A program made the position numbers and the translations under genes. This document shows positions 32,561 through 54,698 of a DNA stretch of 64,000 bases, piece after piece (position 1 is the first letter of the stretch; every line of letters starts with the position of its first letter). Source of the stretch: Candidatus Magasanikbacteria bacterium RIFCSPHIGHO2_01_FULL_33_34 (lineage in GTDB: Bacteria > Patescibacteriota > Patescibacteriia > Magasanikbacterales > UBA922); the NCBI GenBank assembly GCA_001782825.1, contig MFPS01000009.1, forward strand, positions 122,102-186,101. The letters run 5' to 3'. The notes under the pieces are model-generated. The model did no database searches and was not told where the DNA came from. It saw only the letters and a list, made by a program, of their open reading frames with translations.

Positions 32561-33058
32561 CTAAAGTCCACGAGAACAGCTACTAACAGTCCCTCCAGAT
32601 GCTATACAAGCATCATACTCACTCGTTCCAATATCATAATCAAAATAAGCTGGTGGCTTATCCTGCGTAGCATTAAGTGCTACACTAGAAACTAAAGCCA
32701 AAATTGAATAAGCACTCATAATTACAAAAATACCGATTATACCCGTACGCAAAGTGCTCTTGCCTTTTTTTACTTTTTCCTCATCCCCTGCCGAAGACAT
32801 TATCAAATATCCAGCATAAACAGAATACGCAAAAAACATTATACCAATCATCCCTAACAAAAATTTTACCAACTGAGCCACGACAATCCTTGGATCAGTT
32901 GGAATAGTATCTCCTGCGCCAGACTTATTTGCAAAAGTTTTTAATTGTTGAGTAAAATCCTGAGCATTAACTTTTGCAAAATCAACAAAACTGTAGCCTA
33001 AAAATAAAATAGTTATCAATATATATAATGTTAAAAAATTTTTTTTATGTTTTTTCAT
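32561..33058 (-). CDS. VirB2/TrbC-like (T4SS-pilin-like) small secreted protein, paralog 1
   Basis: 165 aa. Signal peptide then the two-helix module ...VYAGYLIMSSAGDEEKVKKGKSTLRTGIIGIFVIMSAYSIL, followed by a short Cys-containing tail. Confidence 0.65.
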   Translation of the reverse strand: MKKHKKNFLTLYILITILFLGYSFVDFAKVNAQDFTQQLKTFANKSGAGDTIPTDPRIVVAQLVKFLLGMIGIMFFAYSVYAGYLIMSSAGDEEKVKKGKSTLRTGIIGIFVIMSAYSILALVSSVALNATQDKPPAYFDYDIGTSEYDACIASGGTVSSCSRGL

Positions 33059-33064
33059 ATAAAA

Positions 33065-33526
33065 TTATCCAGCAAAATCATCCCAACAACTTTCATCTTC
33101 CAGACAATCAAAGCGATCAGAACTTTGAGGTTCTTGAACAGCTTTCTGTAAACCTGAAGCAACAAAACTAGTGATTGCATAGGACAAAACTACTATAAAC
33201 AGTCCTATTACTGCACCACGCATTGTAGCTGATGCTTTTTCAATCTTTTCTGATCTACCACGAGCAATTATAAACCAATATGATGCCATCGCAATCAATA
33301 TAATAAAAATTGAGCCAATAAACCCTAAAAATATCTTTATAACTGAAGCTATGGTAACTTGAGGTGCGACCGCATCAGTATAACCTGCACTAGTCTTGCC
33401 AGCATTCAATTGGCCAAGTACTTTATCATTTAAACTTCCAGCTTGAACAACATTTGTAAATAATAAAGTACTTACAAATAAAATGACTATACTAAATATA
33501 AATTTATATACACTTTTTTGTTGCAT
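33065..33526 (-). CDS. VirB2/TrbC-like small secreted protein, paralog 2
   Basis: Start moved to MQQKSVYKF (ATG at 33526) to remove the overlap. Module ASYWFIIARGRSEKIEKASATMRGAVIGLFIVVLSYAIT, with a Cys-containing acidic tail. Confidence 0.6.
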   Translation of the reverse strand: MQQKSVYKFIFSIVILFVSTLLFTNVVQAGSLNDKVLGQLNAGKTSAGYTDAVAPQVTIASVIKIFLGFIGSIFIILIAMASYWFIIARGRSEKIEKASATMRGAVIGLFIVVLSYAITSFVASGLQKAVQEPQSSDRFDCLEDESCWDDFAG

Positions 33527-33530
33527 AATA

Positions 33531-33947
33531 TTAAAGCGATTCCTCAGATGGCGCAGTTTCAAGCAAAATCCTTGGAACAATAAAGAATGTAATACTGTAT
33601 GCACTAACAGCAATCACCAAACCAATCACTGAAGCGCGAATTATATTTTTTGCTTTATCAACTTGCGCTTCTTCACCACGGGCAGTCATCCAAAGAAAAC
33701 CAGCATAAACTGTCAAACTCATAAATATGATACCAGAAAATGACATCAATATTTTTACAACCGTACCCAATGTAGCTGCAAAAGTTGTTTCACTAGTATT
33801 TTCATCATATTGAGCAGCTTTGGCAGCATCACGTAAAAGTGAATTTGAATTAGATGAAGTTCCAAAACCAATATTTGGTTGAGCAAAAATAACTGTCGGT
33901 ACAAAAATTAAACTTAATAAAGTTATAAAAAATAATATTTTTTTCAT
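33531..33947 (-). CDS. VirB2/TrbC-like small secreted protein, paralog 3
   Basis: 138 aa. Signal peptide VIFAQ. Module VYAGFLWMTARGEEAQVDKAKNIIRASVIGLVIAVSAYSIT. Confidence 0.65.
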   Translation of the reverse strand: MKKILFFITLLSLIFVPTVIFAQPNIGFGTSSNSNSLLRDAAKAAQYDENTSETTFAATLGTVVKILMSFSGIIFMSLTVYAGFLWMTARGEEAQVDKAKNIIRASVIGLVIAVSAYSITFFIVPRILLETAPSEESL

Positions 33948-33956
33948 AAATATATG

Positions 33957-34340
33957 TTATTTATTTAAAGCCCCAGCTACCAGGAAAGTAATAGCATAAG
34001 CCGACAATACAAGCACAAGTCCAATAACAGTTCCTTTTATAATTGATTTTGCTTTGTTAACTTGATCTTCTTCACCCCTAGCTGTCATCCACAAAAATCC
34101 AGCATATACCATAAGCAACAAAAACATAAGACCAACCATAGACAATGCTACATTTATAACTCGTCCACTAATAGTCCCCAAACTATCAGATGCTTCAAAT
34201 CCAGCTTGACCACGAACAGTTTCCAAAGGACTATTTGTACCACCAAAAGCATTCTTAAGACCTTGGGCAGAAACAATTTGTGGTAAAACTACACTACTCA
34301 ATAAAACTATTATTATAATTATTTTTTTTATTGAAAACAT
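33957..34340 (-). CDS. VirB2/TrbC-like small secreted protein, paralog 4
   Basis: 127 aa. Signal peptide IVSAQ. Module VYAGFLWMTARGEEDQVNKAKSIIKGTVIGLVLVLSAYAIT. Confidence 0.65.
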   Translation of the reverse strand: MFSIKKIIIIIVLLSSVVLPQIVSAQGLKNAFGGTNSPLETVRGQAGFEASDSLGTISGRVINVALSMVGLMFLLLMVYAGFLWMTARGEEDQVNKAKSIIKGTVIGLVLVLSAYAITFLVAGALNK

Positions 34341-34348
34341 ATATATAA

Positions 34349-34717
34349 TTAATTTTCTAAAACGCCACCCAATAAAACTGTGATTGCATAAGATGCCAGC
34401 ACTACAATCAAACCTATTATAGCAGCAATTACAGTATTTTTTGCTTTCTTAATTTTATCCTCACTACCACTTGCCATCATCCAACTAAAACCTCCATAAA
34501 AAACCAAAATAAAAAATAATAAACCAACCGCAGTCAAACTTCCTTTTATCATACTACCAAATGTTCCACTAACACTCTCATTGGTAATACCTGCTTTCCC
34601 GGCTACTTTACCTAAATTACCACTAGCACTATTCAATGTGTATGCTGTTGCAAAATCTGCTTGAAAAAAAGAACACAAAATTATGATAAAACAAATATTT
34701 CTTAAAAATTTCTTCAT
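34349..34717 (-). CDS. VirB2/TrbC-like small secreted protein, paralog 5
   Basis: 122 aa. Module FYGGFSWMMASGSEDKIKKAKNTVIAAIIGLIVVLASYAIT. Confidence 0.65.
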   Translation of the reverse strand: MKKFLRNICFIIILCSFFQADFATAYTLNSASGNLGKVAGKAGITNESVSGTFGSMIKGSLTAVGLLFFILVFYGGFSWMMASGSEDKIKKAKNTVIAAIIGLIVVLASYAITVLLGGVLEN

Positions 34718-34733
34718 AAAAATTTACTAGCTA

Positions 34734-35228
34734 CTACGGACAAGCGCAAAACAAACCTCCAGAATTATTATCAACACAAGCTCTACCACCACATTCTGCT
34801 GATGAAGCTGATACTGTAGTACAAGGCTCAGTTGTTACACAACTACTATTTTGTGGTGTAGGCTCAGTAGTAGGTTCTCCACTAATAGCTCTAAATACAA
34901 AAGTAGTTATCGCATACGAGGCTACCACAATAATCAAACCAATCACAGCGGCCTTGATAGTACCCAATGCTTTATCAGTTTGCTGTTCATTACCACGAGC
35001 TATCATCCAAATAACACCACCATATATCATCAATAACAAAAATAATACACCAACCATAGTTAAGGCTGCCCCGACAACACTCCCAATAATATCTACTGGT
35101 GAGCTACCAGATACCGCCCCTTTCAAGCCTGAAACATCGGCAGTTTTGTCTAAACCATAATTTGCATAAACAGTTCCAGTACCAAATAAAGAAACAATGA
35201 TTGATAAAGTGATAATTATTTTTTTCAT
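34734..35228 (-). CDS. VirB2/TrbC-like small secreted protein, paralog 6, with Cys-rich C-terminal tail
   Basis: 164 aa. Module IYGGVIWMIARGNEQQTDKALGTIKAAVIGLIIVVASYAIT, then a tail with 6 Cys. Confidence 0.65.
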   Translation of the reverse strand: MKKIIITLSIIVSLFGTGTVYANYGLDKTADVSGLKGAVSGSSPVDIIGSVVGAALTMVGVLFLLLMIYGGVIWMIARGNEQQTDKALGTIKAAVIGLIIVVASYAITTFVFRAISGEPTTEPTPQNSSCVTTEPCTTVSASSAECGGRACVDNNSGGLFCACP

Positions 35229-35236
35229 AAATTTTA

Positions 35237-35857
35237 TTACTTAGGGATACAACAGACATTATCTGTCCCACCAGTACAATAACCAACCAAGGCTGTACCA
35301 GATACACAATCTGATGGATTACTACATTCAAATCTATCTCCACACTGGCTCGTACATAAACTATCATCATTTGAAATACACACATTTGCAGTTGGACTAC
35401 AAGATACAAGACTTGTACCAAAATCACATGGCTCAGTATCACTACAAGCAACCACCGTCAAACCATCTAGTCTATTTACACACTGTACAGAAGCACCAAT
35501 AGAACGAAAGATTAATCCTACAATCACATAAGAACCTAATACAATCACCAAACCAATTACTGCTGAAACGATTGTTTTGGTAGCTTTATCTGTTTGTTGT
35601 TCATTTCCTCTAGCCGTCATCCATATTATACCACCATATATAGTCAAAAGAAAGAATATAACACTTACAAAAGCAAGCGCTCCACCTATTACTTTTCCAA
35701 TCACTTCACTAGGAGTTCCAACATTCATTGATTTTGCAGAAGCTACCGACTTCAATCCATACTCACTATTTGATTGCGCATATATTGAATCTACAGATAC
35801 CAAAAAAAATCCGATGGCTGAAAAAAAAATAATTATCAAAATAATTAATTTTTTCAT
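35237..35857 (-). CDS. VirB2/TrbC-like small secreted protein, paralog 7, with long Cys-rich C-terminal extension
   Basis: 206 aa. Module IYGGIIWMTARGNEQQTDKATKTIVSAVIGLVIVLGSYVIV, then a roughly 90-aa Cys-rich domain. Confidence 0.65.
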   Translation of the reverse strand: MKKLIILIIIFFSAIGFFLVSVDSIYAQSNSEYGLKSVASAKSMNVGTPSEVIGKVIGGALAFVSVIFFLLTIYGGIIWMTARGNEQQTDKATKTIVSAVIGLVIVLGSYVIVGLIFRSIGASVQCVNRLDGLTVVACSDTEPCDFGTSLVSCSPTANVCISNDDSLCTSQCGDRFECSNPSDCVSGTALVGYCTGGTDNVCCIPK

Positions 35858-35858
35858 A

Positions 35859-36254
35859 TTAAAAATAATAAAAAAAGCCTCTGTGCGTCGCTTGAAATAA
35901 ACTCTTCAAAACAAAGCTAGTAATTGCATACGAACTCATTATTATTGCCAATCCGATAGAAGCTCCCCAAATAATTTTTTTGGCTTTATTTACTTTTTCA
36001 TCATTTCCCATAGATGTCATCCATAAAAAGCCAGCATACAACATCAAAACCATTGTTCCAATTCCAAGAAACCCTAAAACAGTCTGAATTATAGAACCAA
36101 TACTATATCTAATATCCCTATTTTCAAGTCCAGAATACCGAGCATAATTAACACCCAATAAATCATCTTCTGTAGCTACAACTGGACTAATAACAAAAAA
36201 TCCTAGTGATATAAAAAATAATAGGGAAAAAATAATGTATCTTTTTTTTTGCAT
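35859..36254 (-). CDS. VirB2/TrbC-like small secreted protein, paralog 8
   Basis: Start at MQKKRYII (36254). Module LYAGFLWMTSMGNDEKVNKAKKIIWGASIGLAIIMSSYAIT. Confidence 0.6.
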   Translation of the reverse strand: MQKKRYIIFSLLFFISLGFFVISPVVATEDDLLGVNYARYSGLENRDIRYSIGSIIQTVLGFLGIGTMVLMLYAGFLWMTSMGNDEKVNKAKKIIWGASIGLAIIMSSYAITSFVLKSLFQATHRGFFYYF

Positions 36255-36295
36255 ATAAAATATTTGTTTATACAAACAAATGTTTGCATATATAA

Positions 36296-36356
36296 ACAAA
36301 TAGGGCAGGGCTCCTAAAGCAAGGTTTTTCCCTTACATCAGGGGCCCTGCCCTTTA
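36296..36356 (-). terminator. GC-rich hairpin terminator after pilin-like paralog 9
   Basis: On the coding strand: GGGCAGGGCCCC...GGAGCCCTGCCC followed by a T-rich run. A strongly GC-rich stem in an AT-rich background. Confidence 0.6.
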
Positions 36357-36368
36357 ATAATTTGTTTC

Positions 36369-36764
36369 TTATGTTCCGTATCCAGTTGCTGTTCCAAGTT
36401 GTACAAGTACAAAACTTGAAATTGCGTAAGCACTCAAGATAACTGCAAGACCTACAACACCAGCGATGATGATTTTTCTAGCTTCACCAACTCCTTCATC
36501 GTTACCACCAGCTGTCATCCATTTAAAACCACCGTAAAGTACTATTACTAAAGCGATTATACCTAAAAGGCTGAGAGCTACATTGATAATAGAAGCAATT
36601 GTTGTTCTTAAATCTTGATTTCCAAGACGACTAACAGTACCGTAAGTCAAACCAAAATCAGCTTCAATAGAACCAGCTAATGCAGCTGGGGCCAAAGCCA
36701 AACTAAATACCATTGCAGCTAAAACTGAAAGTCCTACCTTGTATTTTAGAATTTTCGATAACAT
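36369..36764 (-). CDS. VirB2/TrbC-like small secreted protein, paralog 9 (candidate major subunit)
   Basis: 131 aa. Module LYGGFKWMTAGGNDEGVGEARKIIIAGVVGLAVILSAYAIS. The only gene here with a strong SD (GGAGGTGA, 7 nt before the ATG), plus a strong terminator. Confidence 0.7.
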   Translation of the reverse strand: MLSKILKYKVGLSVLAAMVFSLALAPAALAGSIEADFGLTYGTVSRLGNQDLRTTIASIINVALSLLGIIALVIVLYGGFKWMTAGGNDEGVGEARKIIIAGVVGLAVILSAYAISSFVLVQLGTATGYGT

Positions 36765-36891
36765 ATTCTCACCTCCCTTCCTATTATAGATTCATTTTTC
36801 ATAGTTAAATTATACTACAAATACTTTAATTAAACAACATTAGTGTGGATAATAATTTAACTATACAATCCTACTTAAAAAATTTTATTTT

Positions 36892-37281
36892 TTATGTGCC
36901 ATAACCAGTTGCGCTACCCAGACTAGTCAATACAAAACTAGAAATTGCATAAGCACTCAAAACTATTGCCAATCCAACTACACCAGCTATAATCGCTTTT
37001 CTACCTTGACCCGCTTGTTCATCATTACCACCAGACACCATCATCTGAAAACCACCATATAATACACCCACTAATGCCAATATACCTAAAAGTCCCAAAA
37101 TAACATTAATAATTGAAGCAATCGTTGAACGCACATCTTGATTCCCCAGACGACTAACAGTACCATAAGTCAAACCAAAATCTTCTTCAATAGAACCAGC
37201 TAACACAGTTGGTGTTAAAACTAAACTAAATATTACCAAAATTAAAGTCGCAAATATATTTAATTTTATTTTTTTATTCAT
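36892..37281 (-). CDS. VirB2/TrbC-like small secreted protein, paralog 10 (near-duplicate of paralog 9)
   Basis: 129 aa. Near-identical to paralog 9 over most of its length (AGSIEEDFGLTYGTVSRLGNQDVRSTIASIINV...). No SD. Confidence 0.65.
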   Translation of the reverse strand: MNKKIKLNIFATLILVIFSLVLTPTVLAGSIEEDFGLTYGTVSRLGNQDVRSTIASIINVILGLLGILALVGVLYGGFQMMVSGGNDEQAGQGRKAIIAGVVGLAIVLSAYAISSFVLTSLGSATGYGT

Positions 37282-37298
37282 AACATTTTTAATAAAAA

Positions 37299-37685
37299 TT
37301 ATTTGGCTATGACCCCAATTAATGCGCTTAAAATTGCATACGAAGAAAATATCACAAGAATACCTATGGTTGCATAAAGCATTGTCTTGGTACCTTTATC
37401 AACTCTCTGTTCATTTCCTGCAGAAGTGAGCCATAAAAATCCACCAATAACAAAAACTATCAACGTTACTGATCCCAAAATTCCTAAACTAGTATCTATT
37501 ATTTTCTTTATCAAAGGATTAATAACCGTACCATCTTCACCGGTAACCATCTCTCCCAAAGGATTTTGTAATCTTGATACACCACTACTATCTTCTTGGG
37601 CATTAACAGATACTGAACCATACACACCCAAAAACATAAAAGAAAAAATCATATAGCCTATTATATATTTTTTGAATATTTTCAT
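37299..37685 (-). CDS. VirB2/TrbC-like small secreted protein, paralog 11
   Basis: Start at MKIFKKYII (37685). Module VIGGFLWLTSAGNEQRVDKGTKTMLYATIGILVIFSSYAIL. Confidence 0.6.
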   Translation of the reverse strand: MKIFKKYIIGYMIFSFMFLGVYGSVSVNAQEDSSGVSRLQNPLGEMVTGEDGTVINPLIKKIIDTSLGILGSVTLIVFVIGGFLWLTSAGNEQRVDKGTKTMLYATIGILVIFSSYAILSALIGVIAK

Positions 37686-37692
37686 AAAAAAT

Positions 37693-38514
37693 TTATTTAA
37701 ATACATTTAATCTATCTGATACACCAAGCACATCAAGCAAAAAACCAACTATAAAATAACCAGCAAAGACTATTACCATACCAATCACTGACGCCACCAA
37801 AACATTTTGTCCTTGTTTGAAACGCTCTGCATTACCAAATGACAATACCATTAAACCACCACCAAAAACAAAGAAAGCAAAAACAATTGCGCCTATATAT
37901 TTGAATATACTACCAGCTGCATTTGAAACAATGACCACTATATCATTTGGGCTATTACAAGTACCCAATTTTGCGCATTTTGGCAATGTTCCTAATATGC
38001 CAGCTTTAAAATCATAATCATATACATTATCCAAATATTGCAAGGCTTCACTATAACAAGTCTCAGCATCTTCATTCCATTTACAAACATCACTTACAAT
38101 ACAATCTGTCTTTTTTTGCATATATGAACAATCCGAATTGGAAAATCTAGATAAACAACTACCATCTGTTGTAAAAAAACAACCAGATCTACGTATACAA
38201 AGATTTTTAGGCAAATCATTGCAGGTAACACAGTAATTTTCTGTACAAGATACACCCACTTCAACTCTATAAAAAGACTGGTCAACATACTTTATCAATG
38301 TATCACAAGGCAATACCTCCATATCATCGCGTCTACAACCAACTGGTTTCAAACTACTCTGGCTCGGTTCTGTACCTTCTGATATTAAACAGCAACCTAT
38401 AGATTCAGCTTTTAATTCTTGAGGACTAAATATAATTGCAACAAAAAAAACCAAAAACACAAAGCTAAATTTTTGTATTTTATGAATAAATTTTTTTTTA
38501 TTGATAAATAACAT
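37693..38514 (-). CDS. Cys-rich ectodomain protein with C-terminal VirB2-like two-helix anchor (subfamily A)
   Basis: 273 aa. Signal peptide, then a roughly 170-aa domain with about 20 Cys, then IGAIVFAFFVFGGGLMVLSFGNAERFKQGQNVLVASVIGMVIVFAGYFIV. Confidence 0.6.
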   Translation of the reverse strand: MLFINKKKFIHKIQKFSFVFLVFFVAIIFSPQELKAESIGCCLISEGTEPSQSSLKPVGCRRDDMEVLPCDTLIKYVDQSFYRVEVGVSCTENYCVTCNDLPKNLCIRRSGCFFTTDGSCLSRFSNSDCSYMQKKTDCIVSDVCKWNEDAETCYSEALQYLDNVYDYDFKAGILGTLPKCAKLGTCNSPNDIVVIVSNAAGSIFKYIGAIVFAFFVFGGGLMVLSFGNAERFKQGQNVLVASVIGMVIVFAGYFIVGFLLDVLGVSDRLNVFK

Positions 38515-38520
38515 TTTATA

Positions 38521-39903
38521 TTACATTGTTTGTTGAATAATTTTTACAGCATTTCCTATTAAACCAATATTTCTCTTGAGTTCACTTTCTTTTTCTCCAA
38601 CTGGTTTTAAGTAATTGCTAAATAATTCATCAAATGCTTTTTCTGCTGAAATAATATTTTTACCTCTATACCAATTTTCTGCTGTGATTGCTTGTAATGC
38701 AAACGGGCCAATATTCACATCTTCTTTTTGTACCAATAATTGCTCGCGCAAAGGACTTGGTTGACCAGTTTTTTTGGAATATTTTTCAACATTTTCAGGC
38801 AATGTTATGAATCTAACAAAATCCCATGCCTCTGATTTGTGTTGCGATTTTGCAACCACAGACTCAACCCAATAATTAGCGACGTTTGAAGGATCTGCAG
38901 AATTCAACTGTGGTACTGGCTCAATATCAAATTTAATCTGAGGGCCTCTAGCTTTAAGCCGAGGGAGATCATAGGCAAAACCAAAATAAAATACGCTTTT
39001 ACCACGCGCAAATTCATCCAATGAATTCGCCATTTTTGCATTCCAGGAATATACATCTTTTGTTGGTCTGGCAAAATCAGAATAAAATTGTAATGTTTGA
39101 AGTACAGGATGATCACTTGACCTGTCAGTCAACCCATTAGCAAAAGTTACTCTATCTCCCTGTGACATAATGAGACTATTTTGCATCATCAACAAAGAAA
39201 TTATATCAAAAGAATTATCAATATTTTCCCCAAGACCTAGGGCAACTCCTGATTGGATAATATTACCATCACGATCATATTTGGTTGATTTTTTGACAGC
39301 ACTAGAAAACTCATCCCAAGTTTTTGGTGGAATTGGAATTCCAGCTTTATCAAGCAATTCTACATTGTAATACATCGCCAATGTATCCATAAACAAAGGA
39401 AGTCCATAAACTTTGTCACCTACAATAATATCCTGCGCTACCGTTGTCACATATGATTTTTTGATATAATCAATTGTTGGCATTGCATTATTTTCTGTTG
39501 AAATAACAGTTTTTGGTTTAAATTCACCTTCAGTAAAAACATTAGTTACTTGAACATTATCAGGCATAGGATCAAGCCTATTCAAATATTTGTTAACCCA
39601 TCTAGGATGCATAGAAACAATATCCGGAGCATTATCATCAGCCAAAGCATTGGCAAACAAACTATCAAATTCATCATATCTAACTTGTTTTACTTTTATA
39701 GTTACATAACTATGCAAATTTTGATATGAGACTGCAAATGATCTCAACGCATCAACATCATTATAAACAGTCCAGTAATTTATTGTGATTGGTTTTACTG
39801 CTTCTTGTTGTTCTTGTGTAAGACCTTTACAACCCAACCCAGTCAAAACAAATATACTTATCAAAGAAAATATTATTAAGTATCTTTTATTTATTAATTT
39901 CAT
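38521..39903 (-). CDS. ABC transporter substrate-binding lipoprotein (SBP family 1, sugar-type). Orphan; no permease or ATPase gene adjacent
   Basis: 460 aa. Signal peptide with lipobox-like LTGLGC. Length and composition fit a maltose/sugar-type SBP. Confidence 0.6.
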   Translation of the reverse strand: MKLINKRYLIIFSLISIFVLTGLGCKGLTQEQQEAVKPITINYWTVYNDVDALRSFAVSYQNLHSYVTIKVKQVRYDEFDSLFANALADDNAPDIVSMHPRWVNKYLNRLDPMPDNVQVTNVFTEGEFKPKTVISTENNAMPTIDYIKKSYVTTVAQDIIVGDKVYGLPLFMDTLAMYYNVELLDKAGIPIPPKTWDEFSSAVKKSTKYDRDGNIIQSGVALGLGENIDNSFDIISLLMMQNSLIMSQGDRVTFANGLTDRSSDHPVLQTLQFYSDFARPTKDVYSWNAKMANSLDEFARGKSVFYFGFAYDLPRLKARGPQIKFDIEPVPQLNSADPSNVANYWVESVVAKSQHKSEAWDFVRFITLPENVEKYSKKTGQPSPLREQLLVQKEDVNIGPFALQAITAENWYRGKNIISAEKAFDELFSNYLKPVGEKESELKRNIGLIGNAVKIIQQTM

Positions 39904-39908
39904 ATTAT

Positions 39909-41201
39909 TTATACAAATAAACCAAATATAAATTTAAGTATAACATAACTAGACAAAATTACTACGACACCCAAAGATGACCAAGTCATCATTTTCAAAG
40001 CTTTACTAGTTTTCTCAGAATTCCCTCTAGCAGTCATCCACATAAATCCACTACCAACAAACATAGCGAGCGCCACACTGCCAGTGAAACCTAATATATA
40101 TTCTATAATCTTACCAACCAAAGTTTGAATCTGTTCTGTTTTGGTCCCAGAACCCAATTTTAGTTTATTGAGATTAGCAATACTATCTCCAACATCACAA
40201 CCCAACAACCCCGGTCTTTCACCTGTCTTTGGGCAAAGGCCTTCACATTCACGTGCTATATATTCTCTACATTTTGTTAAGGCTTCTCCAGTACCTTCTC
40301 CTTCTTTTTTACATACTTCATCAATTTGTGTCTGATCTTCACAAAAACTTAACACAGGTTTATCTTCAACCGCTTCTAATACAGTTTTGCAAGTAACATC
40401 AAACCAAAAATCTGGAAATAATTGATCAGAAAAATTAACTAAACCACATTTATCATAAGTAAAATTTGTTTGTATCCATTCTTTATCAAGACATTTTTTT
40501 TCTTCAACTGGCTGTTCTACTAGTGTTGGTATACCACAAAAACCATGACCATCTTCAGTAAAACTTAATTCACAATTAACTTGATTGACAGATCCACCAC
40601 AACCAAAACCCCCTTCATCATCTGTATTAATAAAACTACAATTAGCATTTGGAATTATTCTGATTACTCGTGTAGGTATTGGTTGGAATGCTAGTGGACC
40701 AATCCCAGGGGTAGTAGGCATACTACCAAGTATAGGACTACAATTGTCCTTAAACAGTCCCTCATCAAACGTATAACCACCAATTGTACTGGCAAACTCT
40801 CTAACAAATTTTTGTATTGCTTCAGTAAAACTAAAACAAGCAAAGCCACTTTCTGGAAATGCAATACTACCCAAATTTCCTGCAAGCGCACGATAACCAG
40901 ATGCCTCAAGATTCCTACGAACCCCATGACATGACGGGCAATCATCAGTACTTATACCAGTCGGAGGGACTTGCATATTTCTTATACTGATACTACAGCT
41001 ACATTGCCCAGCATCAGTCTTACTTCTGACAACCACTGCTTCTCCCAAAGAAGTAGTATATTCAGGTGGTGTAGCAGATTGAAAATTAGCGCATTGTTGA
41101 TTGGTCTGCGCATTAACTTTTACTCCAAAAAATAATCCTGTTATCAAAGAAGTAAAAAATAATATAGTAATAAATATTTTTTTTGAAAAAAATATACTCA
41201 T
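39909..41201 (-). CDS. Cys-rich ectodomain protein with C-terminal VirB2-like two-helix anchor (subfamily B)
   Basis: Start at MSIFFSKK (41201). About 30 Cys in the ectodomain. C-terminus GSVALAMFVGSGFMWMTARGNSEKTSKALKMMTWSSLGVVVILSSYVIL. Confidence 0.6.
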   Translation of the reverse strand: MSIFFSKKIFITILFFTSLITGLFFGVKVNAQTNQQCANFQSATPPEYTTSLGEAVVVRSKTDAGQCSCSISIRNMQVPPTGISTDDCPSCHGVRRNLEASGYRALAGNLGSIAFPESGFACFSFTEAIQKFVREFASTIGGYTFDEGLFKDNCSPILGSMPTTPGIGPLAFQPIPTRVIRIIPNANCSFINTDDEGGFGCGGSVNQVNCELSFTEDGHGFCGIPTLVEQPVEEKKCLDKEWIQTNFTYDKCGLVNFSDQLFPDFWFDVTCKTVLEAVEDKPVLSFCEDQTQIDEVCKKEGEGTGEALTKCREYIARECEGLCPKTGERPGLLGCDVGDSIANLNKLKLGSGTKTEQIQTLVGKIIEYILGFTGSVALAMFVGSGFMWMTARGNSEKTSKALKMMTWSSLGVVVILSSYVILKFIFGLFV

Positions 41202-41205
41202 AAAT

Positions 41206-42240
41206 TTATTCTGGTCTAAATTCAATACTGACACCAAATGATTTTATAATAAAATCTGTTATAAAATACGCGCCAAACACAATGATTAACCCTATCACAG
41301 CTGCCACTATTATGCCCTTACCTTTGGCTACCTTCTCTTGATTTCCAAAAGACAAAACCATAGTAATACCACCTATAATGAAAAAAATAAAAGCAAGAGC
41401 GCCCACATATTTGAATATTTCTTTGGCAAACATAAGTGGTACACCTAGCAAATCCCCAATACTATTACAAGTTCCAGCGACTGCACATGGTGGCATAAAT
41501 TTGCCACTATCTCTAGTACCATAAGTTTCATTTATATATTGTTGATATTCATCAATACACGTAGTTGATTCAAAATCCCATTTACATTTGTTACTTCTAG
41601 CACAATCAAATTCACTATTTATGTGTGGACATTCACTACCTCTCTCTGCTTCAAAACATGTTCCTTGTCCTTCAGACCAAAAACAAGCTCCTGTGTTATT
41701 ACAAGATCGTTTATCATTCTTGTTATGACATTCATCAATTCCATTGTATTTTCTCCAATAATCTACAGCAGTATTACATATATCTGAATATTTAGGTGGA
41801 GGCACATAATCCAAACATTTCATTTCAGTCTCCATATACTGTGGACATTCAGTTGGCAAACCTTCTCCTCCCATAACTCCTGAAATAAACTCAACTTGAT
41901 CAAGTTTATCTGATATACCACTCAAACCTCTACCAACTATAGCCCCAAAATCAAAAAGACCAAAATATTCATTGCAATTACTTTTTGTTTGTACACCTAT
42001 TTTACATGGCTTTGCTGTTGTTTTTAAACGACACCCTGATAAACTCCAATCACTTGTACACCTGTCCATACCTACTACATCCCCTATCCATGTTTTTCCA
42101 CACCAATTCGTCCAACTGCTTTTCTCTGTTCTAATTTCATTAATACAACAAACTGGCTCACTTTCACCTTGAGCAAAAACAATATTTGGACTAAAAAATA
42201 ATCCCATTACAAATATGCTGATTATTAAAAACTTTTTCAT
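41206..42240 (-). CDS. Cys-rich ectodomain protein with C-terminal VirB2-like anchor (subfamily A paralog)
   Basis: 344 aa. C-terminus VGALAFIFFIIGGITMVLSFGNQEKVAKGKGIIVAAVIGLIIVFGAYFIT is homologous to 37693-38514. The N-terminal Cys-rich domain is divergent. Confidence 0.6.
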   Translation of the reverse strand: MKKFLIISIFVMGLFFSPNIVFAQGESEPVCCINEIRTEKSSWTNWCGKTWIGDVVGMDRCTSDWSLSGCRLKTTAKPCKIGVQTKSNCNEYFGLFDFGAIVGRGLSGISDKLDQVEFISGVMGGEGLPTECPQYMETEMKCLDYVPPPKYSDICNTAVDYWRKYNGIDECHNKNDKRSCNNTGACFWSEGQGTCFEAERGSECPHINSEFDCARSNKCKWDFESTTCIDEYQQYINETYGTRDSGKFMPPCAVAGTCNSIGDLLGVPLMFAKEIFKYVGALAFIFFIIGGITMVLSFGNQEKVAKGKGIIVAAVIGLIIVFGAYFITDFIIKSFGVSIEFRPE

Positions 42241-42245
42241 AAAAA

Positions 42246-43373
42246 TTAACTAAAAATACTGAAAATAAAATCCAAAATCACATAACTAGACAAGATTACC
42301 ACAACACCCAAAGATGACCACGTCATCATTTTCAAAGCTTTGCTAGTTTTTTCAGAATTCCCTCCTGCAGTCATCCACAAAAATCCACTGCCAACAAACA
42401 TAGCGAGCGCCACACTACCGGTGAAGCCCAATATATACTCTATAACCCTACCTAAAAATGTTTGGATTGGTTGATCCCCTTCAATATTAAGTTGATTTAA
42501 AGCTCCATAAAGTTTTGCCACATCACAACCCAAATTACCCTTTTCTGAACCATCAGCACATTTTCCTTCACATTCATTTATCAATCTTTCCACACAATTA
42601 TCTAATTCATCTCCAGAAATTCCATCTTTACTTTTTTTACAATACTCTGATATTTTATCAACTGAACAATTTTCAAATAAATTCTCATCAATATCATCTT
42701 TAGTATGTAGTTTACAAGTCAAACTAAAATCTAATACATCATTATGCACTAGCCCCATCCAACTACAACCTCGTTCACTACAGATTCTATTTATCTCCTC
42801 AGTCCAATTTATAATTAAATTAAAATCATAAGTATCACCTTCACAATTTGATTCATTTATAATACCTTCAGTAGTACCTAATCGTTCTCTCATGCTTTGT
42901 TCTGTAGCAATCAAATCACCAACCAAAAAATTACAATTACTATTTATCATTGCAGCTCTAAAAGCATCGAACAAATCAAACCTAGAATTCAAAGCATAAA
43001 CTGTTGTACTCTGTCCTTGACAATATTGAGTTGATGGCCCTAATTCTTCATAATTAGGACTGTTTACTCCTATTACTTTTGCTCTACTGATTTGCAATCC
43101 ACATTCACAATATCCTGTTTCATATAATTTTTTTTTATATTCAACATATGCAACACATTCTGCTCTTCTGGCATCAGTACAATCACTACCATAATCCTCC
43201 AATATATTACATATATCTGTGTAATACTCTTGAGCACCCACAGAATCACAATCTTCATTGTAGCCTGGTTGATTTGTACTATCTAATTGCGCAGAAACAT
43301 TTTGAGTAAATACAAAAAATAAAAGCGCTATAAAAAAAGCTTTTAAAAAATAAATTTTTTTTCTTGCCTTCAT
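42246..43373 (-). CDS. Cys-rich ectodomain protein with C-terminal VirB2-like anchor (subfamily B paralog)
   Basis: 375 aa. C-terminal roughly 90 aa nearly identical to 39909-41201 (EGKCADGSEKGNLGCDV...GSVALAMFVGSGFLWMTAGGNSEKTSKALKMMTW). The N-terminal domain is divergent. Confidence 0.6.
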   Translation of the reverse strand: MKARKKIYFLKAFFIALLFFVFTQNVSAQLDSTNQPGYNEDCDSVGAQEYYTDICNILEDYGSDCTDARRAECVAYVEYKKKLYETGYCECGLQISRAKVIGVNSPNYEELGPSTQYCQGQSTTVYALNSRFDLFDAFRAAMINSNCNFLVGDLIATEQSMRERLGTTEGIINESNCEGDTYDFNLIINWTEEINRICSERGCSWMGLVHNDVLDFSLTCKLHTKDDIDENLFENCSVDKISEYCKKSKDGISGDELDNCVERLINECEGKCADGSEKGNLGCDVAKLYGALNQLNIEGDQPIQTFLGRVIEYILGFTGSVALAMFVGSGFLWMTAGGNSEKTSKALKMMTWSSLGVVVILSSYVILDFIFSIFS

Positions 43374-44307: not shown

Positions 44308-45603
44308 TTATTGTATTGTCTCCAGCCAATTGCCAATAAGCCAACCACCACCCGGACCACTAGTAAAATTCAAATTCACCAAACCAGATTCATAAATAAT
44401 AGTTGAATTATTTTCAACTTGCATTTGATAGGCCGTAGCTTCTTTCAAAGTAGCTGAATTTTGTATAAACAATAATCCATAAGGCGCATATAATATTCCC
44501 CGAAGTTGAGTATTGTTTTGCATCATTATAGCTGGATCAGAAGTATCCAATTGATTAGCAGTCGTAATAAACATTATATAACTATCATTTGGAGTATTGC
44601 AGTCCACAATATCTTCATTATAACCCTCAGAACCACAAATTATTACATTATTTTTTAGATCAATATCACCATCTACTATCATAACCCCACTATTATCCCC
44701 ATAACCAGCATTCAATTCAATTCCGGCACTATTTTCCAAAACTAAATTTCCAGTTACCCATACTGTTCCATCAAATGTAAAAGTATCATCACCGTTACCA
44801 CTTATTCTTAAATCTCCATTAATCCTAACTGGCCCCAAAGAAAAATCCATATCATCAATATCCTGTGTACCAATTGTACCACCCGCAAGAGCGGCCGCTT
44901 TCCAACTATTTATTTGATCATCTGTTATAGGAAAATCTACAGTATCGGGATCCGCACTACCCGGAAATTCAGCTCCATTAAAAGTATTACCACCACTATC
45001 AACCGCATAATATGCATCACCATCAACAACAGTATCTGTAATTGTATGAGCACGAACATCTCCACCAACATTAAAATTATCAACCAGACCAGATGGACCA
45101 GCAACCCAAACATCACCAGTTGCATTAGCAGAGTTCACTCCAACAATATTACCATTTGAATATATACTCCCTTCAATTGTACTATCATTTTTCATTAAAA
45201 TTCCACCTTGACCCACCTGCATACCATAATTAAAACTAATCCCTTCTGTTGCTGGCACTAAACTAACTTCCACACCTCTCACAAATGAATCCTTGTCTGC
45301 AAATGATTCTATAACATAAACTCCATCATCCAAACCAAGACCTATTTCAGCCGTAGCACCTGCCAATGACAAAGTATATTCCCAATCATAAGACAAATCC
45401 GGATCAATCATTCGAAGTAACATATCTTCCAATCCTGCCTCAGCCGTATAATAACTTTGCGCTGAACCAACTACATTGCGAATTAATTTTTCTCTGGATA
45501 TCATCGATGAAGTTAAACTCATCACAATAATAAGACCAACTATGGTTGCCAAAAGCACACTGACAATTGCTGAATATCCTTTATTATTTAATAATTTACC
45601 CAT
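44308..45603 (-). CDS. Large pilus-associated protein (N-terminal pilin-like TM helix, Gly/Asn/Asp-rich beta-rich body; PilY1/tip-adhesin-like)
   Basis: 431 aa. N-terminus MGKLLNNKGYSAIVSVLLATIVGLIIV resembles a degenerate prepilin leader. First gene of a four-gene prepilin-type run. Confidence 0.45.
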   Translation of the reverse strand: MGKLLNNKGYSAIVSVLLATIVGLIIVMSLTSSMISREKLIRNVVGSAQSYYTAEAGLEDMLLRMIDPDLSYDWEYTLSLAGATAEIGLGLDDGVYVIESFADKDSFVRGVEVSLVPATEGISFNYGMQVGQGGILMKNDSTIEGSIYSNGNIVGVNSANATGDVWVAGPSGLVDNFNVGGDVRAHTITDTVVDGDAYYAVDSGGNTFNGAEFPGSADPDTVDFPITDDQINSWKAAALAGGTIGTQDIDDMDFSLGPVRINGDLRISGNGDDTFTFDGTVWVTGNLVLENSAGIELNAGYGDNSGVMIVDGDIDLKNNVIICGSEGYNEDIVDCNTPNDSYIMFITTANQLDTSDPAIMMQNNTQLRGILYAPYGLLFIQNSATLKEATAYQMQVENNSTIIYESGLVNLNFTSGPGGGWLIGNWLETIQ

Positions 45604-45607
45604 AATA

Positions 45608-46147
45608 TTAATATGATCTTAATGATGCGGTTGTTGTCAAAGTAACACTACTCTTTTCTTGAATTTCGGTCGACGGTGAATCATACGAAGCAGTGATTGA
45701 AACTCTCACCGCTTGATAGCTACCAGCAGAATTGATATGAGTGAATGTCAAATCATCAATTTTTGTTTTTTGAGATACAATTATTTCTGAGACAACTCCC
45801 TCTCTCTTCATATAAAGCCTATCCCCATCAACAAAAAAATCAATAAAAGTAATTGTTTCACCAACAGGCACATTATTTGTACTCTCCAAACTTAACTGCC
45901 CAGGACTTGAATCAAAAATACTTGTCGGTGTATAAATATTTGATGCATGCCTAATTTCTTGAGCAATGACTTCAAGCGCGCTTCTAGTATTTCCTAGGAC
46001 TTCACCTCTAGCTTGAATATTTAAATTATTTCTGACCAATTGAGGGAGAAAAGAAGCTACCATAGTCGTAATCAAAAGCATAATAAATATATACATCATC
46101 ATTTCTATCAAAGTAAATCCTTTTTTATTTTTTTTCAAAAAAAACAT
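45608..46147 (-). CDS. Type IV pilin/pseudopilin (prepilin-type N-terminal cleavage/methylation domain)
   Basis: KKGFTLIEMMMYIFIMLL: G-F-T-L-I-E with Glu at +5. Confidence 0.8.
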   Translation of the reverse strand: MFFLKKNKKGFTLIEMMMYIFIMLLITTMVASFLPQLVRNNLNIQARGEVLGNTRSALEVIAQEIRHASNIYTPTSIFDSSPGQLSLESTNNVPVGETITFIDFFVDGDRLYMKREGVVSEIIVSQKTKIDDLTFTHINSAGSYQAVRVSITASYDSPSTEIQEKSSVTLTTTASLRSY

Positions 46148-46150
46148 AAA

Positions 46151-46672
46151 CTAATTATTCAAAAAATTAGTTAAATAAGTTTCCAATACAACACTATTAG
46201 TTACACTTTTCTCCACCCAAGAAACTGTAACTACCACCCTCTTTGTTTTGGGGTCATCAGTGCCAACAACTGCAATATCATCATTTGCATCACGATTAAC
46301 CGCATAAATCGATATAGTTCTCGTAAAAGTTCCATTAATCAATGGCTGAGAAATAGTAGATAAAGTCCACAAATCACCCACCAAAACTGGATAATACACA
46401 GTACCACTAGTCAAAGTCGCTATATCATCAGTCCAACTAACATTTTTTATTGTTCTAACTATTTCAATACCCTCCTGAGCAAATTGCACTGCCTCAGTCT
46501 TTCTCAATGCTCTATGCATAGTTTGATTTGAAAAGAAAATTATACTATATATTGAACTGAAAAACATAAGAGCGATAGCGATAGCAATCACTACTTCTAC
46601 AATACTAAATCCAGAATTATTTTTTTTATTATTTTTATTTTGAATAAAATATTTTTTAAAAATTTTCAACAT
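46151..46672 (-). CDS. Type IV pilin/pseudopilin (prepilin-type N-terminus)
   Basis: NNSGFSIVEVVIAIAIALMFF. Start trimmed to MLKIFKKY (46672) to avoid overlap with the next gene. Confidence 0.7.
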   Translation of the reverse strand: MLKIFKKYFIQNKNNKKNNSGFSIVEVVIAIAIALMFFSSIYSIIFFSNQTMHRALRKTEAVQFAQEGIEIVRTIKNVSWTDDIATLTSGTVYYPVLVGDLWTLSTISQPLINGTFTRTISIYAVNRDANDDIAVVGTDDPKTKRVVVTVSWVEKSVTNSVVLETYLTNFLNN

Positions 46673-46676
46673 ATTA

Positions 46677-47534
46677 TTATTGAATAGACATTGTACCACC
46701 AAATACACCTACACTAGGTACACCATCTGCTGTAAACGATGCAATAGCATTGCCATCAACAGAAACATCTAGCATCTTTGTATTATATCTACCATCACGA
46801 TGTATACACAAAACAGTATCAAATTCATCCAATGAGTGAGTGTGTACCCTCAAAGTCTGAGGCTCACCATTTACATCAATAGTCCCAGTCCAATCAAACT
46901 CTGTTTCATCTGGATTAAAATAATCTGCCATTACAACAGTCTCATCAACATCTACTGTATCATCAAAATGAAGTTCTAAATCAGATGCACCTTGCAAACT
47001 CCACCCCAGTGCAAAATGAATATGTCTAGAATCTATTACTCTTGTATCTGTCAAATTTATTGTTCCCGCAAGACCTACTCGTCCAGAAGGCGATATTTTT
47101 ATTACTCTATTTTCATCATTGTCATCCACCAGTCTCAAAATAATATCACCTACATGGTCAGTTTTACCTGTAATCCGATCAAAAACGACTGACACGCCAA
47201 AAGTATTACCCCAAATATCTGTATACTCAACATTATCTGAAAAATAAAAAACTTCATTATTTGGATCATTTACATCCCAATCAAATCCCTTATATATGGC
47301 ATAATAAGTCGGCTCAAAACGAACCCCATATTGATCATTCTCCTTGGAAGAAAGAGTTCTTTCTGATGCTAAATGTAATGCAGAAATCACATCATTTACC
47401 GAAGTATTCAATTCTAATCTTTTGACAAACGATCTATAACTTACAAAACCACCAACTACCAAAATACTTGCTGTTGAAACAACCAATAAAATTTCTACAA
47501 GTGAAAAACCTCGTTTATTTAAACATTTAAGCAT
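46677..47534 (-). CDS. Type IV pilin/pseudopilin (prepilin-type N-terminus)
   Basis: True start is MLKCLNKRGFSLVEILLVVSTASILVVGG (ATG at 47534). The upstream 18 codons of the ORF-track call lie in the AT-rich palindromic leader. Confidence 0.75.
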   Translation of the reverse strand: MLKCLNKRGFSLVEILLVVSTASILVVGGFVSYRSFVKRLELNTSVNDVISALHLASERTLSSKENDQYGVRFEPTYYAIYKGFDWDVNDPNNEVFYFSDNVEYTDIWGNTFGVSVVFDRITGKTDHVGDIILRLVDDNDENRVIKISPSGRVGLAGTINLTDTRVIDSRHIHFALGWSLQGASDLELHFDDTVDVDETVVMADYFNPDETEFDWTGTIDVNGEPQTLRVHTHSLDEFDTVLCIHRDGRYNTKMLDVSVDGNAIASFTADGVPSVGVFGGTMSIQ

Positions 47535-47650
47535 ATAAACATATAAACATTCCATCGTTCCCAATAACAAATAAATTATTTGATGCAAATTTTATTAAAA
47601 ACAAAATATGTTTATATGTTTGTATGTTTACATGTTAAGTATTATATCAC
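47535..47650 (-). promoter_or_regulatory. Conserved palindromic AT-rich leader A (TATAAT, then CATACAAACATATAAACATAT, then AATGTTTATATGTTTATATG overlapping the start codon)
   Basis: Minus-strand reading: GATATAATACTTAACATGTAAACATACAAACATATAAACATATTTTGTTT ... GGAATGTTTATATGTTTATATGCTTAAATG. A near-identical arrangement is found at 62456-62592. Confidence 0.5.
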
Positions 47651-47691
47651 AAAAAACAAAAAACCGCCCTTTCAGACGATTTTTCTGTTTT

Positions 47692-47931
47692 TTATTTTGG
47701 AACAAAGGCTAGCAATCCGGCGATTCTTGCCTGTTTGATAGCTTTTGTAACTTTGCGTTGATGAAACGCACATAGTCCACTGCGTCTTCTTGGAGCAATT
47801 TTCATATATGATGAAACAAATCTGCGTAGAGTTTGAATATCTTTATAATCAATTGCTTTTTTATTGTTAACACAGTAATGACATTGTCTTTCAGTTTTTT
47901 TCATGATATGTCTATTAAGTAATAATTTCAC
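47692..47931 (-). CDS. rpsR: 30S ribosomal protein S18
   Basis: 79 aa. RRRSGLCAFHQRKVTKAIKQARIAGLL. Confidence 0.9.
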   Translation of the reverse strand: MKLLLNRHIMKKTERQCHYCVNNKKAIDYKDIQTLRRFVSSYMKIAPRRRSGLCAFHQRKVTKAIKQARIAGLLAFVPK

Positions 47932-47940
47932 TTGTTTCTA

Positions 47941-48378
47941 TTAAAATGGAATATCTTCTACTTTTACTTCGTCAATTGGTTCTTCTTGATAAGCAGGTCC
48001 AGAATCTTGGGTAGAGACAGTATTATCAGATGCAGGTGAACCACCAGTTCTACCACCATCTAACATTATCATATTGTCTACTACAATTTCTGTTTTATAT
48101 TTTTTGACACCATCAGTTCCAGTCCAATCACTAGTTTGCAATCGTCCTTCTACATAGACTCTCTTACCTTTTGACAAATATTGTCCTGCAATTTCGGCAA
48201 TCTTTCCCCAAAGGACACAATTGTGATATTCTGGCTTCTCTTGTTTTTGGCCAGCAGAATCAGTCCAAACTCTATTGGTTGCAATACCTAATTTTGTTAC
48301 AGTACGTCCACTAGGGGTGCTTTTTACTTCAGGGTCACGAGTCAAACGACCCAAAATTGTTGCTCTATTTAAATCCAT
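47941..48378 (-). CDS. ssb: Single-stranded DNA-binding protein
   Basis: 145 aa. OB-fold N-terminus LNRATILGRLTRDPE and C-terminal acidic tip DIPF. Confidence 0.9.
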   Translation of the reverse strand: MDLNRATILGRLTRDPEVKSTPSGRTVTKLGIATNRVWTDSAGQKQEKPEYHNCVLWGKIAEIAGQYLSKGKRVYVEGRLQTSDWTGTDGVKKYKTEIVVDNMIMLDGGRTGGSPASDNTVSTQDSGPAYQEEPIDEVKVEDIPF

Positions 48379-48428
48379 ATTAATATTTTATGATTTAAGA
48401 TTGAGTTAAGCCAAATATTTATGACTTA

Positions 48429-48980: not shown

Positions 48981-49195
48981 AATTTAATGTATATTCTTAT
49001 TAATCCGCTTTCTTGTCTATCCTTGGGATCGACCGACAAACAATAATCACAAATAATATAGTGGAAATAATATACCATTATGATATAGAAATGTCAATAG
49101 TTAACCATAATTTAATCTAAATAATAAACTAAAATACAAAATAGCAAAATTAGTAAAAATATGATATAATTTATTTGAATAAATATTGCTATTTT

Positions 49196-50923: not shown

Positions 50924-50927
50924 TTTT

Positions 50928-52046: not shown

Positions 52047-52055
52047 AATTATAAA

Positions 52056-53159: not shown

Positions 53160-53172
53160 ATAATTTTATACC

Positions 53173-53700: not shown

Positions 53701-53701
53701 T

Positions 53702-54680: not shown

Positions 54681-54698
54681 TATTGATTATTAAACAAG

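Follow-up and report, generated by a model that had tools for sequence, protein, structure and literature searches.

A conserved extended Shine-Dalgarno sequence on one pilin gene in a Magasanikbacteria lineage poor in such sequences

The subject of this work is a pilin gene on the minus strand (36369..36764) of a 64,000-nucleotide stretch from Candidatus Magasanikbacteria bacterium RIFCSPHIGHO2_01_FULL_33_34 (contig MFPS01000009.1, positions 122,102 to 186,101), which is referred to as the window. The gene is preceded by an unusually long Shine-Dalgarno sequence (SD). This element is a real and selected SD that pairs with the anti-SD of 16S rRNA, and it is carried by one conserved pilin in a lineage of ultra-small groundwater bacteria that is poor in SDs. 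It is complementary to the 16S tail over 12 nucleotides (nt), it is conserved on the orthologues of this pilin and almost exclusive to them, and it is accompanied by stable hairpins enriched behind the SD-bearing genes and, in the window, by a codon bias of the gene itself. The most economical reading, which we consider probable, is that the principal pilin of these bacteria receives privileged translation and protection of its mRNA.

The extended Shine-Dalgarno sequence and the 16S tail

The coding strand ahead of the pilin gene reads AGGAAGGGAGGTGAGAAT-ATG, within the longer context ...ATAGGAAGGGAGGTGAGAAT-ATG. The extended SD, GAAGGGAGGTGA, occupies 12 nt at 36769..36780 (minus strand) and is the complement of the 16S tail 3'-CUUUCCUCCACU-5'. 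When Watson-Crick and G.U pairs with this tail are both counted as compatible, all 12 positions can pair, 11 of them as Watson-Crick pairs and one as G.U. The original prediction, which was made from the letters alone, had pointed to a GGAGG core 7 nt ahead of the start codon, and this is borne out: the core lies at 36776-36772 and the ATG at 36764, a distance within the 4-10 nt range of SDs. The spacer between the 12-mer and the ATG is GAAT (36765..36768, minus strand), 4 nt long, or 7 nt when measured from the core. The predicted energy of pairing with the anti-SD is -17.2 kcal/mol for an E. coli-type tail and -21.9 kcal/mol for the tail read in relatives, whereas the median over 64 gene starts in the window is -2.2 kcal/mol and none of 3000 random 20-mers reached -15 kcal/mol with the shorter E. 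coli-type tail. The 8-mer GGAGGTGA by itself is within chance in 64 kb (2 found, 0.82 expected); the significance of the pilin SD comes instead from the 12-mer, its position and its conservation on orthologues. A chance origin was rejected on the 12-mer and its conservation, even though the 8-mer alone is non-significant.

Because the anti-SD motif has been reported missing from about half of Parcubacteria 16S genes (Tsurumaki et al., PMC9297842), the 16S tail was checked in relatives. Eight loci of relatives that contain rpsU, which encodes ribosomal protein bS21, also carry the 16S gene's 3' end, ...GUCGUAACAAGGCAUCCGUAGCGGAAGCUGUGGAUGGAUCACCUCCUUUCU, closing with ...GGAUCACCUCCUUUCU or ...GAUCACCUCCUUUCU, and Rfam identified all eight as the 3' end of small-subunit rRNA, up to model position 1533. 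These relatives have a canonical tail of the B. subtilis type, and the conserved GAAAG found 5' of the GGAGG core is explained by the complement of this tail, AGAAAGGAGGUGAUC. In three loci (L096, L113 and L125, positions 1-800), the 16S gene is followed by two tRNA genes and then by protein genes (hisS, lepB, rpsU); a 23S gene was not found within about 5.5 kb after the 16S gene in the DNA covered at these loci, and the rRNA genes of the relatives appear to be unlinked.

The original prediction also held that other genes in the window start without an SD, and for the great majority this stands. The ordinary starts (n=64) are of a non-SD kind, A-rich at -11 to -5 and with T at -1 in 51 of 64, and the frequency of G at -12 to -1 is 3-19% per position, mostly below 10%. 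Such SD-less, A/T-rich and G-poor starts include those of the housekeeping genes rpsA (bS1), ssb, gyrA and ileS. Two starts depart from the claim. A minus-strand gene at 58937-59419 has AAGGAG upstream (-11.0 kcal/mol), and a 70-amino-acid (aa) open reading frame (ORF) at 10883-11095 on the same strand is also preceded by GGAGGTGA, as part of GGAGGTGAccaATG (-15.4 kcal/mol; CCATGGAGGTGAccaATG in the region 10883-11106). The 70-aa ORF lies downstream of rpsA (11388-12653) and a tRNA-Leu gene, and a promoter-like TTGTTT-16-TATAAT precedes it. It is a species-specific ORFan with no homologue elsewhere among 5.8 billion proteins and, being found in this species only, was rejected as a further member of the group of SD-bearing genes formed by the pilin and rpsU, which is described below.

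The leader of the pilin gene is unstructured (z +0.77). Rfam contains no family matching it, and a search of the whole window, together with permissive E-values on 36200-36950, returned no riboswitch, leader or small RNA family. A thermosensor or riboswitch that sequesters the SD was rejected because the 5' leader is unstructured.

Conservation on pilin orthologues and the companion gene rpsU

A 22-member subfamily alignment was used to collect orthologues and gave 79 loci, drawn from representatives of different species, most of them Magasanikbacteria, with a G+C content of 26-66%. Starts were assigned without regard to the SD, each orthologue being given the first ATG of its matched ORF, and the 12-mer had to end 2-9 nt before this ATG. 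A 12-mer compatible at all 12 positions precedes 51 of 76 orthologues and none of 952 control ORFs from the same loci, and 4 further orthologues, against 1 of the 952 controls, reach 11 of 12. This excess over background, together with base changes that are neutral for pairing, marks the element as selected. Orthologues throughout a clade of class rank keep the extended SD, which the other pilin paralogues lack. At four loci where the matched gene lacks it (L027, L041, L050, L076), an adjacent pilin gene carries it.

The commonest forms of the 12-mer are GAAAGGGGGTGA (26 orthologues), the window form GAAGGGAGGTGA (12) and GAAAGGAGGTGA (7). Among the positions that the search did not constrain, m1 is invariably G (69 of 69) and m2-m4 vary only between A and G. 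Substitutions between A and G exchange an A-U for a G.U pair and so keep the pairing with a pyrimidine strand, which points to an RNA-RNA duplex and argues against a protein-binding site. At m7, G or A is found, except in one small clade with T (L029, L068, L074, L076, L084). The pilin SD of this clade has GGTGG (GAAAGGTGGTGA) in place of GGAGG or GGGGG, and would face the canonical tail with a U.U mismatch unless a CCACC in the clade's 16S rRNA compensates. The spacer ranges from 3 to 8 nt and measures 4 nt in 50 of the 69 orthologues, all of which start with ATG. Where the pilin gene is duplicated in tandem (L047, L074, L076, L006), each copy retains the SD. Across 173 loci the pattern GRRRGGRGGTGA was found only ahead of the SD-bearing pilin gene (SD-pilin), with two occurrences where this gene has a tandem duplicate, and, reverse-complemented, at those 16S ends; the single exception is one match at a contig end.

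The motif scan also matched a 79-aa gene in L080, which encodes a divergent bS21. Pfam did not recognise this protein, and its identity comes from a search of the Protein Data Bank with phmmer, in which 20 of 20 hits were bS21, from a profile search (E 5e-5), from TIGR00030 (E 0.02) and from homologues that carry PF01165. A metagenome scan with an S21 alignment then gave 80 loci of the clade (L086-L165), 79 of them usable. A strong SD precedes rpsU in all 79, as CGGAGGTGA or as GAAAGnGAGGTGA with one bulged base, at -14.4 to -16.7 kcal/mol, so that in these relatives every clade rpsU lies below the -13 kcal/mol that characterises the extended SD of this gene in Bacteroidota. The start codon is GTG in 64 of the 79, and examples of the SD can be seen in L167 at 5990-6012 and in L080 at 2184-2210. 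Of the 1399 ORFs in the related loci, none but rpsU and the pilin gene have 10 or more of 12 positions compatible, about six sporadic cases aside. The original prediction had presented the pilin SD as a one-off in its genome. That premise fails, because the whole lineage has the feature and rpsU shares it.

Both SD-bearing genes are present in the Magasanikbacteria genome GW2011_GWA2_37_8. In this genome (L166/L167, 6001-12246), genes for proteins of 690 aa and 3657 aa start 5 nt after rpsU. Such giant proteins, which are also encoded in L080, L088, L091 and L136, combine an N-terminal T4SS_pilin domain with Big_5, Laminin_G_3 and TIG domains, and AAAGGAGGG precedes the first giant gene in L080 and L091. 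As judged from this gene order, a ribosomal protein gene is at the head of a predicted pilin-adhesin operon.

The pilin gene, its flanks and its neighbourhood

The product of 36369..36764 (131 aa) is a VirB2/TrbC-like T4SS_pilin protein with a signal peptide and a two-helix hairpin. It matches PF18895 (T4SS_pilin) in Pfam with 36.7 bits, above the curated cutoff of 26.6, and matches an NCBIfam ICE pilin-like family at E 1e-6, below the cutoff of that family. An AlphaFold 2 model shows an N-terminal signal helix (residues 3-31) and hairpin helices (50-84 and 89-126) at a predicted local distance difference test score of 86-92, in agreement with the signal peptide and hydrophobic two-helix hairpin of VirB2/TrbC pilins. 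A Foldseek search of the Protein Data Bank with this model gave no significant match, the fold being a helical hairpin too generic for that. The product is identical to A2725_03335 (NCBI protein), from a metagenome-assembled genome of Candidatus Magasanikbacteria from the Rifle aquifer, and the gene is also present on a 1.17-Mb contig. Its close homologues are all from Patescibacteria.

Codon usage sets this gene apart within the window. The fraction of C-ending NNY codons is 0.46, which ranks first among 62 genes, compared with 0.18 genome-wide and 0.0 in the closest paralogue. All five Tyr codons are TAC and NNG codons are avoided (Fisher p = 0.001). The G+C content of the gene is 0.379 against a window mean of 0.329, and its G+C at third codon positions (GC3) is 0.189 against 0.224 for the host genome. 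The G+C content of the window itself is 32.6%.

Upstream of the leader, a putative promoter consists of a -10 hexamer TATAAT (36809..36814, minus strand; context TGTAGTATAAT), from which transcription is predicted to start near 36802, and a -35-like hexamer TTGTTT (36832..36837, minus strand) 17 nt upstream of it. Because TTGTTT shares only 3 of its 6 positions with TTGACA, the promoter scan omitted it. TGTGnTATAAT or TGTGnTATACT is present in many orthologues, 45-90 nt ahead of the ATG.

A candidate upstream ORF with moderate support, MKNESIIGREVRICYRKF followed by a stop, occupies 36746..36802 (minus strand). Its ATG at 36802 coincides with the predicted start of the transcript, and its frame reads through the SD, overlaps the pilin start and ends 19 nt inside the pilin gene. 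An ATG lies 24-45 nt ahead of the pilin ATG in 42 of 69 leaders (18.4 +/- 3.6 in shuffles), and in 31, scored over 26-44 nt, this ATG is in the frame that traverses the SD, at 29, 32, 35, 38 or 41 nt (2 mod 3), compared with 6.3 +/- 2.4 and a maximum of 15 in 2000 shuffles. The ATG is preceded by T at -1 in 28 of these 31, as are the genuine starts of the lineage. The frame is stop-free up to the SD in 30 of 31, which adds little given 65-77% for control frames. Most of the in-frame upstream ORFs of orthologues have 10-14 codons, contain the SD and stop at a TGA that overlaps the pilin ATG, an arrangement similar to the coupling of overlapping stop and start codons at AUGA. It differs from AUGA coupling in that the upstream element would encode a putative, non-conserved leader peptide rather than a gene, and in that the upstream ORF of the window runs 19 nt into the pilin gene. 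The sequences compared are phylogenetically related, and we regard the upstream ORF as a lead and not as a finding.

On the 3' side, a hairpin at 36294..36367 (minus strand) has a G+C-rich core at 36353-36302 with 10+5+6 bp and 8 additional A-U pairs, and is followed by UAUUUGUUUAU. Its folding energy is -45.5 kcal/mol (z -7.7 against shuffles), and no other 70-nt fold in the window, on either strand, is as stable (-41.1 kcal/mol for this one, compared with a mean of -8.2 and a standard deviation of 4.5). The GC-rich terminator stem of 12 bp in the original prediction is thus a real hairpin, with an interrupted helix of about 21 pairs plus the A-U pairs in place of the stem described. A G+C-rich stem-loop directly after the stop codon is what an intrinsic terminator would have. 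The consensus terminator scan did not call this one, and UAUUUGUUUAU partly pairs with the upstream A-tract. The window hairpin would act as a terminator, as a 3' stabiliser of the mRNA, or as both.

Such hairpins are enriched behind the orthologues. The median minimum free energy of the 60 nt after the stop codon is -18.5 kcal/mol for SD-pilins (n=69), -6.9 for other pilin-like genes (n=145) and -7.9 for other ORFs (n=1002; Mann-Whitney p about 1e-14), and the orthologue hairpins have a median of about -22 kcal/mol and about 20 bp. A near-identical hairpin, GGGGGTTCGCGCGCGCAACCCCC, was found in seven species (L024, L030, L032, L033, L039, L067, L072), 12-18 nt after the stop codon of the SD-pilin in six of them and 106 nt after it in L072. 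In about 1.4 Mb of related DNA there is no other occurrence. A dispersed repeat, whether a repetitive extragenic palindromic element or a miniature inverted-repeat transposable element, was rejected because GGGGGTTCGCGCGCGCAACCCCC is found only after the SD-pilin stop. The N-termini of the pilins are strongly diverged among these seven species.

The SD-pilin is one of about 15 co-directional genes with a Pfam T4SS_pilin domain that form an array (32561..43373, minus strand), which one gene for a solute-binding protein (38521-39903) interrupts. Its closest paralogue, at 36892..37281 (minus strand, 129 aa), had been described as a near-identical duplicate without an SD. It does lack an upstream SD, as well as a strong hairpin and the codon bias; its protein is only 70% identical, and the description as near-identical does not hold. 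In comparisons across species, the SD-pilin has a median identity of 55.6% and is the most conserved member of the array, a ranking of little weight, since choosing the loci by their similarity to the SD-pilin biases it. VirB2-like pilin arrays have already been described in Patescibacteria, including Magasanikiibacteriota, with 2-11 or more divergent T4SS_pilin/TrbC genes (10.1101/2025.01.22.634366 / PMC12102498), and the array in the window is an example of them. That study does not deal with translation signals, and the array in the window differs in adjoining type IV pilus genes rather than virB4.

The neighbour of the array is a type IV pilus cluster (44308-55829), and not virB4 or virB6. 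The cluster comprises PilB (49196-50923), PilC (50928-52046), PilM (52056-53159), PilN (53173-53700) and N_methyl prepilins (45608-46147 and 46677-47555). Elsewhere in the window, an intergenic region of 420 nt (7345-7765) is rich in G+C and is predicted to be strongly structured on either strand (z -6.7 and -6.3). A promoter-like TTGACA lies upstream of it, two hairpins resembling terminators lie at its end, and no Rfam family matches it. Within it, a 75-aa ORF (7452-7676) has AAAGGGG 7 nt upstream. The region is a candidate for an unannotated RNA or small-protein gene.

Interpretation and significance

An SD, a hairpin, a promoter and a codon bias on the same gene fit a highly expressed principal subunit. 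In the mechanism that we propose, the pilin locus would be a self-contained unit with its own extended -10 promoter, a short unstructured leader, a 12-nt SD at optimal spacing, a codon-optimised ORF and a stable 3' hairpin. The extended SD would pair over its 12 nt with the canonical 3' tail of 16S rRNA and promote binding of the 30S subunit and initiation on the pilin mRNA, while nearly all other genes of the lineage initiate without an SD, from A/U-rich and G-poor start regions with U at -1. The unit would thereby drive the privileged translation of one conserved VirB2-like pilin among many divergent paralogues and would probably also stabilise its mRNA, and the SD-pilin would be the likely principal subunit of a Magasanikbacteria pilus or of a surface structure resembling a type IV secretion system (T4SS). 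The original prediction had singled out this paralogue as the highly translated, major structural subunit. The signs of selection in its SD, hairpin and codons bear out that it is singled out, and we infer from them a major structural role.

Several observations weigh against privileged translation of a principal pilin. A 12-nt SD duplex of about -20 kcal/mol exceeds the optimum for throughput in model bacteria. SDs as extreme as this one serve regulation in the rpsU of Bacteroidota (PMC9976891), and the strong SD on rpsU in all clade loci suggests that genes with such an SD may form a class under regulation rather than one that is simply expressed at high levels. The 16S tail that establishes the complementarity comes from relatives and not from the window's own genome. 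About 10 of the 79 loci have no SD-bearing copy within the DNA covered. A T-rich tail (at least five T in the next 10 nt) follows only 18 of 68 orthologue hairpins, which makes the terminator role insecure; many of these hairpins may be 3' barriers to decay. With regard to the identity of the pilin, VirB4 and VirB6 were not found with Pfam among about 30 larger or neighbouring ORFs of the window, where the neighbours are the type IV pilus genes, so that T4SS machinery is not adjacent within the window and may sit elsewhere in the genome. Literature searches for transcriptome or proteome data on this lineage or on VirB2-like pilins from the candidate phyla radiation (CPR) returned nothing relevant.

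The regulatory precedent comes from Bacteroidota, whose SD-poor genomes retain an anti-SD that is held by bS21, bS18 and bS6, and in which only rpsU bears an extended SD (below -13 kcal/mol), which ribosomes free of bS21 read preferentially (Jha 2021, PMC7797042; McNutt 2023, PMC9976891; Naeem 2026, PMC13000453). These papers on autoregulation do not mention Patescibacteria. Their system is nevertheless similar to the present one in an SD-poor lineage, a canonical anti-SD (seen here in relatives) and very few genes with an extended SD below -13 kcal/mol conserved across the clade, rpsU itself being one of them. By analogy, the anti-SD of these bacteria might normally be held by bS21, bS18 and bS6, such that only an extended SD or a ribosome lacking bS21 could form the SD helix. 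We consider this unlikely. The pilin gene and rpsU would in that event be two mRNAs on a specialised route, and synthesis of the pilin would be coupled to the state of the ribosome and not maximised, an outcome that we likewise hold to be doubtful. A tentative version of the idea has a regulon of two members, rpsU and the principal pilin, whose SDs of at least 12 nt engage an accessible 16S tail, for example on bS21-free or newly assembled 30S subunits, with the upstream ORF feeding ribosomes to the SD. The clade-wide SD and mostly GTG start of a gene that indeed encodes bS21, the near restriction of high compatibility to rpsU and the pilin gene, and the canonical anti-SD kept in SD-poor genomes are in line with such a regulon, as is the presence in GW2011_GWA2_37_8 of giant pilin-domain genes directly after rpsU and of the SD-pilin in the same genome. 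CPR bS21 also has an invariant Tyr in a conserved C-terminal motif, a putative counterpart of Tyr54 of F. johnsoniae. On the other hand, sequestration of the anti-SD in a CPR ribosome is argued by analogy. The mechanism in F. johnsoniae is limited to a single gene, rpsU (PMC9976891), whereas in these Patescibacteria the extended SD is not confined to a ribosomal protein gene controlling the anti-SD and the strongest one is on a non-ribosomal pilin. The codon bias and the stabilising hairpin of this pilin indicate bulk expression and are a poor fit to a minor subpopulation of ribosomes, and rpsU of the window's own genome was not found.

For privileged translation with mRNA protection, the closest parallel is the cry mRNA of Bacillus thuringiensis, in which an SD-like sequence (STAB-SD) near the 5' end pairs with the extended 16S tail and blocks RNase J1, and in which a stable stem-loop acts as a stabiliser on the 3' side (PMC4113751). 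There too the flanked gene encodes a structural protein that is mass-produced. The pilin element could be a 5' stabiliser of this very kind, with a 30S subunit parked on the 12-mer against 5'-to-3' decay and the hairpin acting as a retroregulator against 3' exonucleases to give a long-lived mRNA. The 12-mer is only about 22 nt from the predicted 5' end, and the orthologue hairpins without a U-tract, about half of them, resemble barriers to decay more than terminators. Yet a STAB-SD is by definition non-initiating and has no start codon, whereas here an ATG follows at canonical distance in every orthologue scored, and the distance from promoter to SD varies widely among orthologues. Although stabilisation and initiation can coexist, we regard a mainly stabilising role as improbable. 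We give still less weight to an arrangement similar to pilE/pilS of Neisseria, in which the SD locus would be the expressed one and the paralogues would recombine into it to vary the pilin. A locus of the same species (L006; GCA_001784315.1, MFQM01000032.1, 9351-10523) does have a paralogue, a hybrid and the SD-pilin in a row, the hybrid being identical to the SD-pilin in promoter, SD and signal peptide and identical to the paralogue in its 3' part and downstream, as expected of a product of unequal crossing-over. This is the single hybrid seen and possibly an assembly artefact, the paralogues are complete ORFs with their own starts (SD-less starts being the norm) and signal peptides rather than silent cassettes, and the mature SD-pilin is the most conserved sequence of the array, not the most variable. 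Least credible of all is a relic of a recent horizontal transfer, in which a donor that uses SDs, for example a conjugative element of a Firmicute, would have supplied the cassette together with its promoter, SD and terminator, and the SD would have no special role in the present host. The unit is self-contained, the G+C content of the gene is above the window mean, and CPR T4SSs have been proposed to derive from monoderm conjugation systems (10.1101/2025.01.22.634366). However, the motif is kept in more than 60 species across the full range of G+C content, with flanks that cannot be aligned and with only pairing-neutral changes in the motif itself; the GC3 is as low as that of the host, and no close homologue lies outside Patescibacteria. 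The relic was rejected on the conservation pattern and the GC3.

SDs, SD-poor lineages and CPR pilin arrays are already known. Literature searches for SD usage in Patescibacteria pilins gave nothing relevant, and we found no description of a class-wide 12-nt SD reserved for one pilin with its own promoter and 3' hairpin, nor of a universal strong SD on rpsU in this clade of Patescibacteria.

Members of the CPR are mostly uncultured and little is known of how they control gene expression. The simple rule of a 12-mer complementary to the 16S tail followed by an ATG picks out the specially selected pilin among its paralogues, genome by genome, and is a help in choosing targets when the structures and host interactions of these episymbionts are studied. 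It also means that the anti-SD is intact and in use in a Parcubacteria lineage where SDs are nearly absent. Since rpsU has a strong SD throughout this clade, the puzzle that has been solved for Bacteroidota, why an anti-SD is kept that no gene uses, extends to a second and very distant phylum, with a non-ribosomal client in addition, and whether specialised ribosomes regulate genes for surface structures becomes a testable question. Privileged translation of the principal pilin and control through the ribosome predict different outcomes for the abundance of the pilin and its dependence on bS21. If the two-member regulon were true, production of a host-contact filament would be wired to the state of the ribosome, and this would be the first case of specialised ribosomes of the Bacteroidota type outside that phylum and the first to control a non-ribosomal gene.

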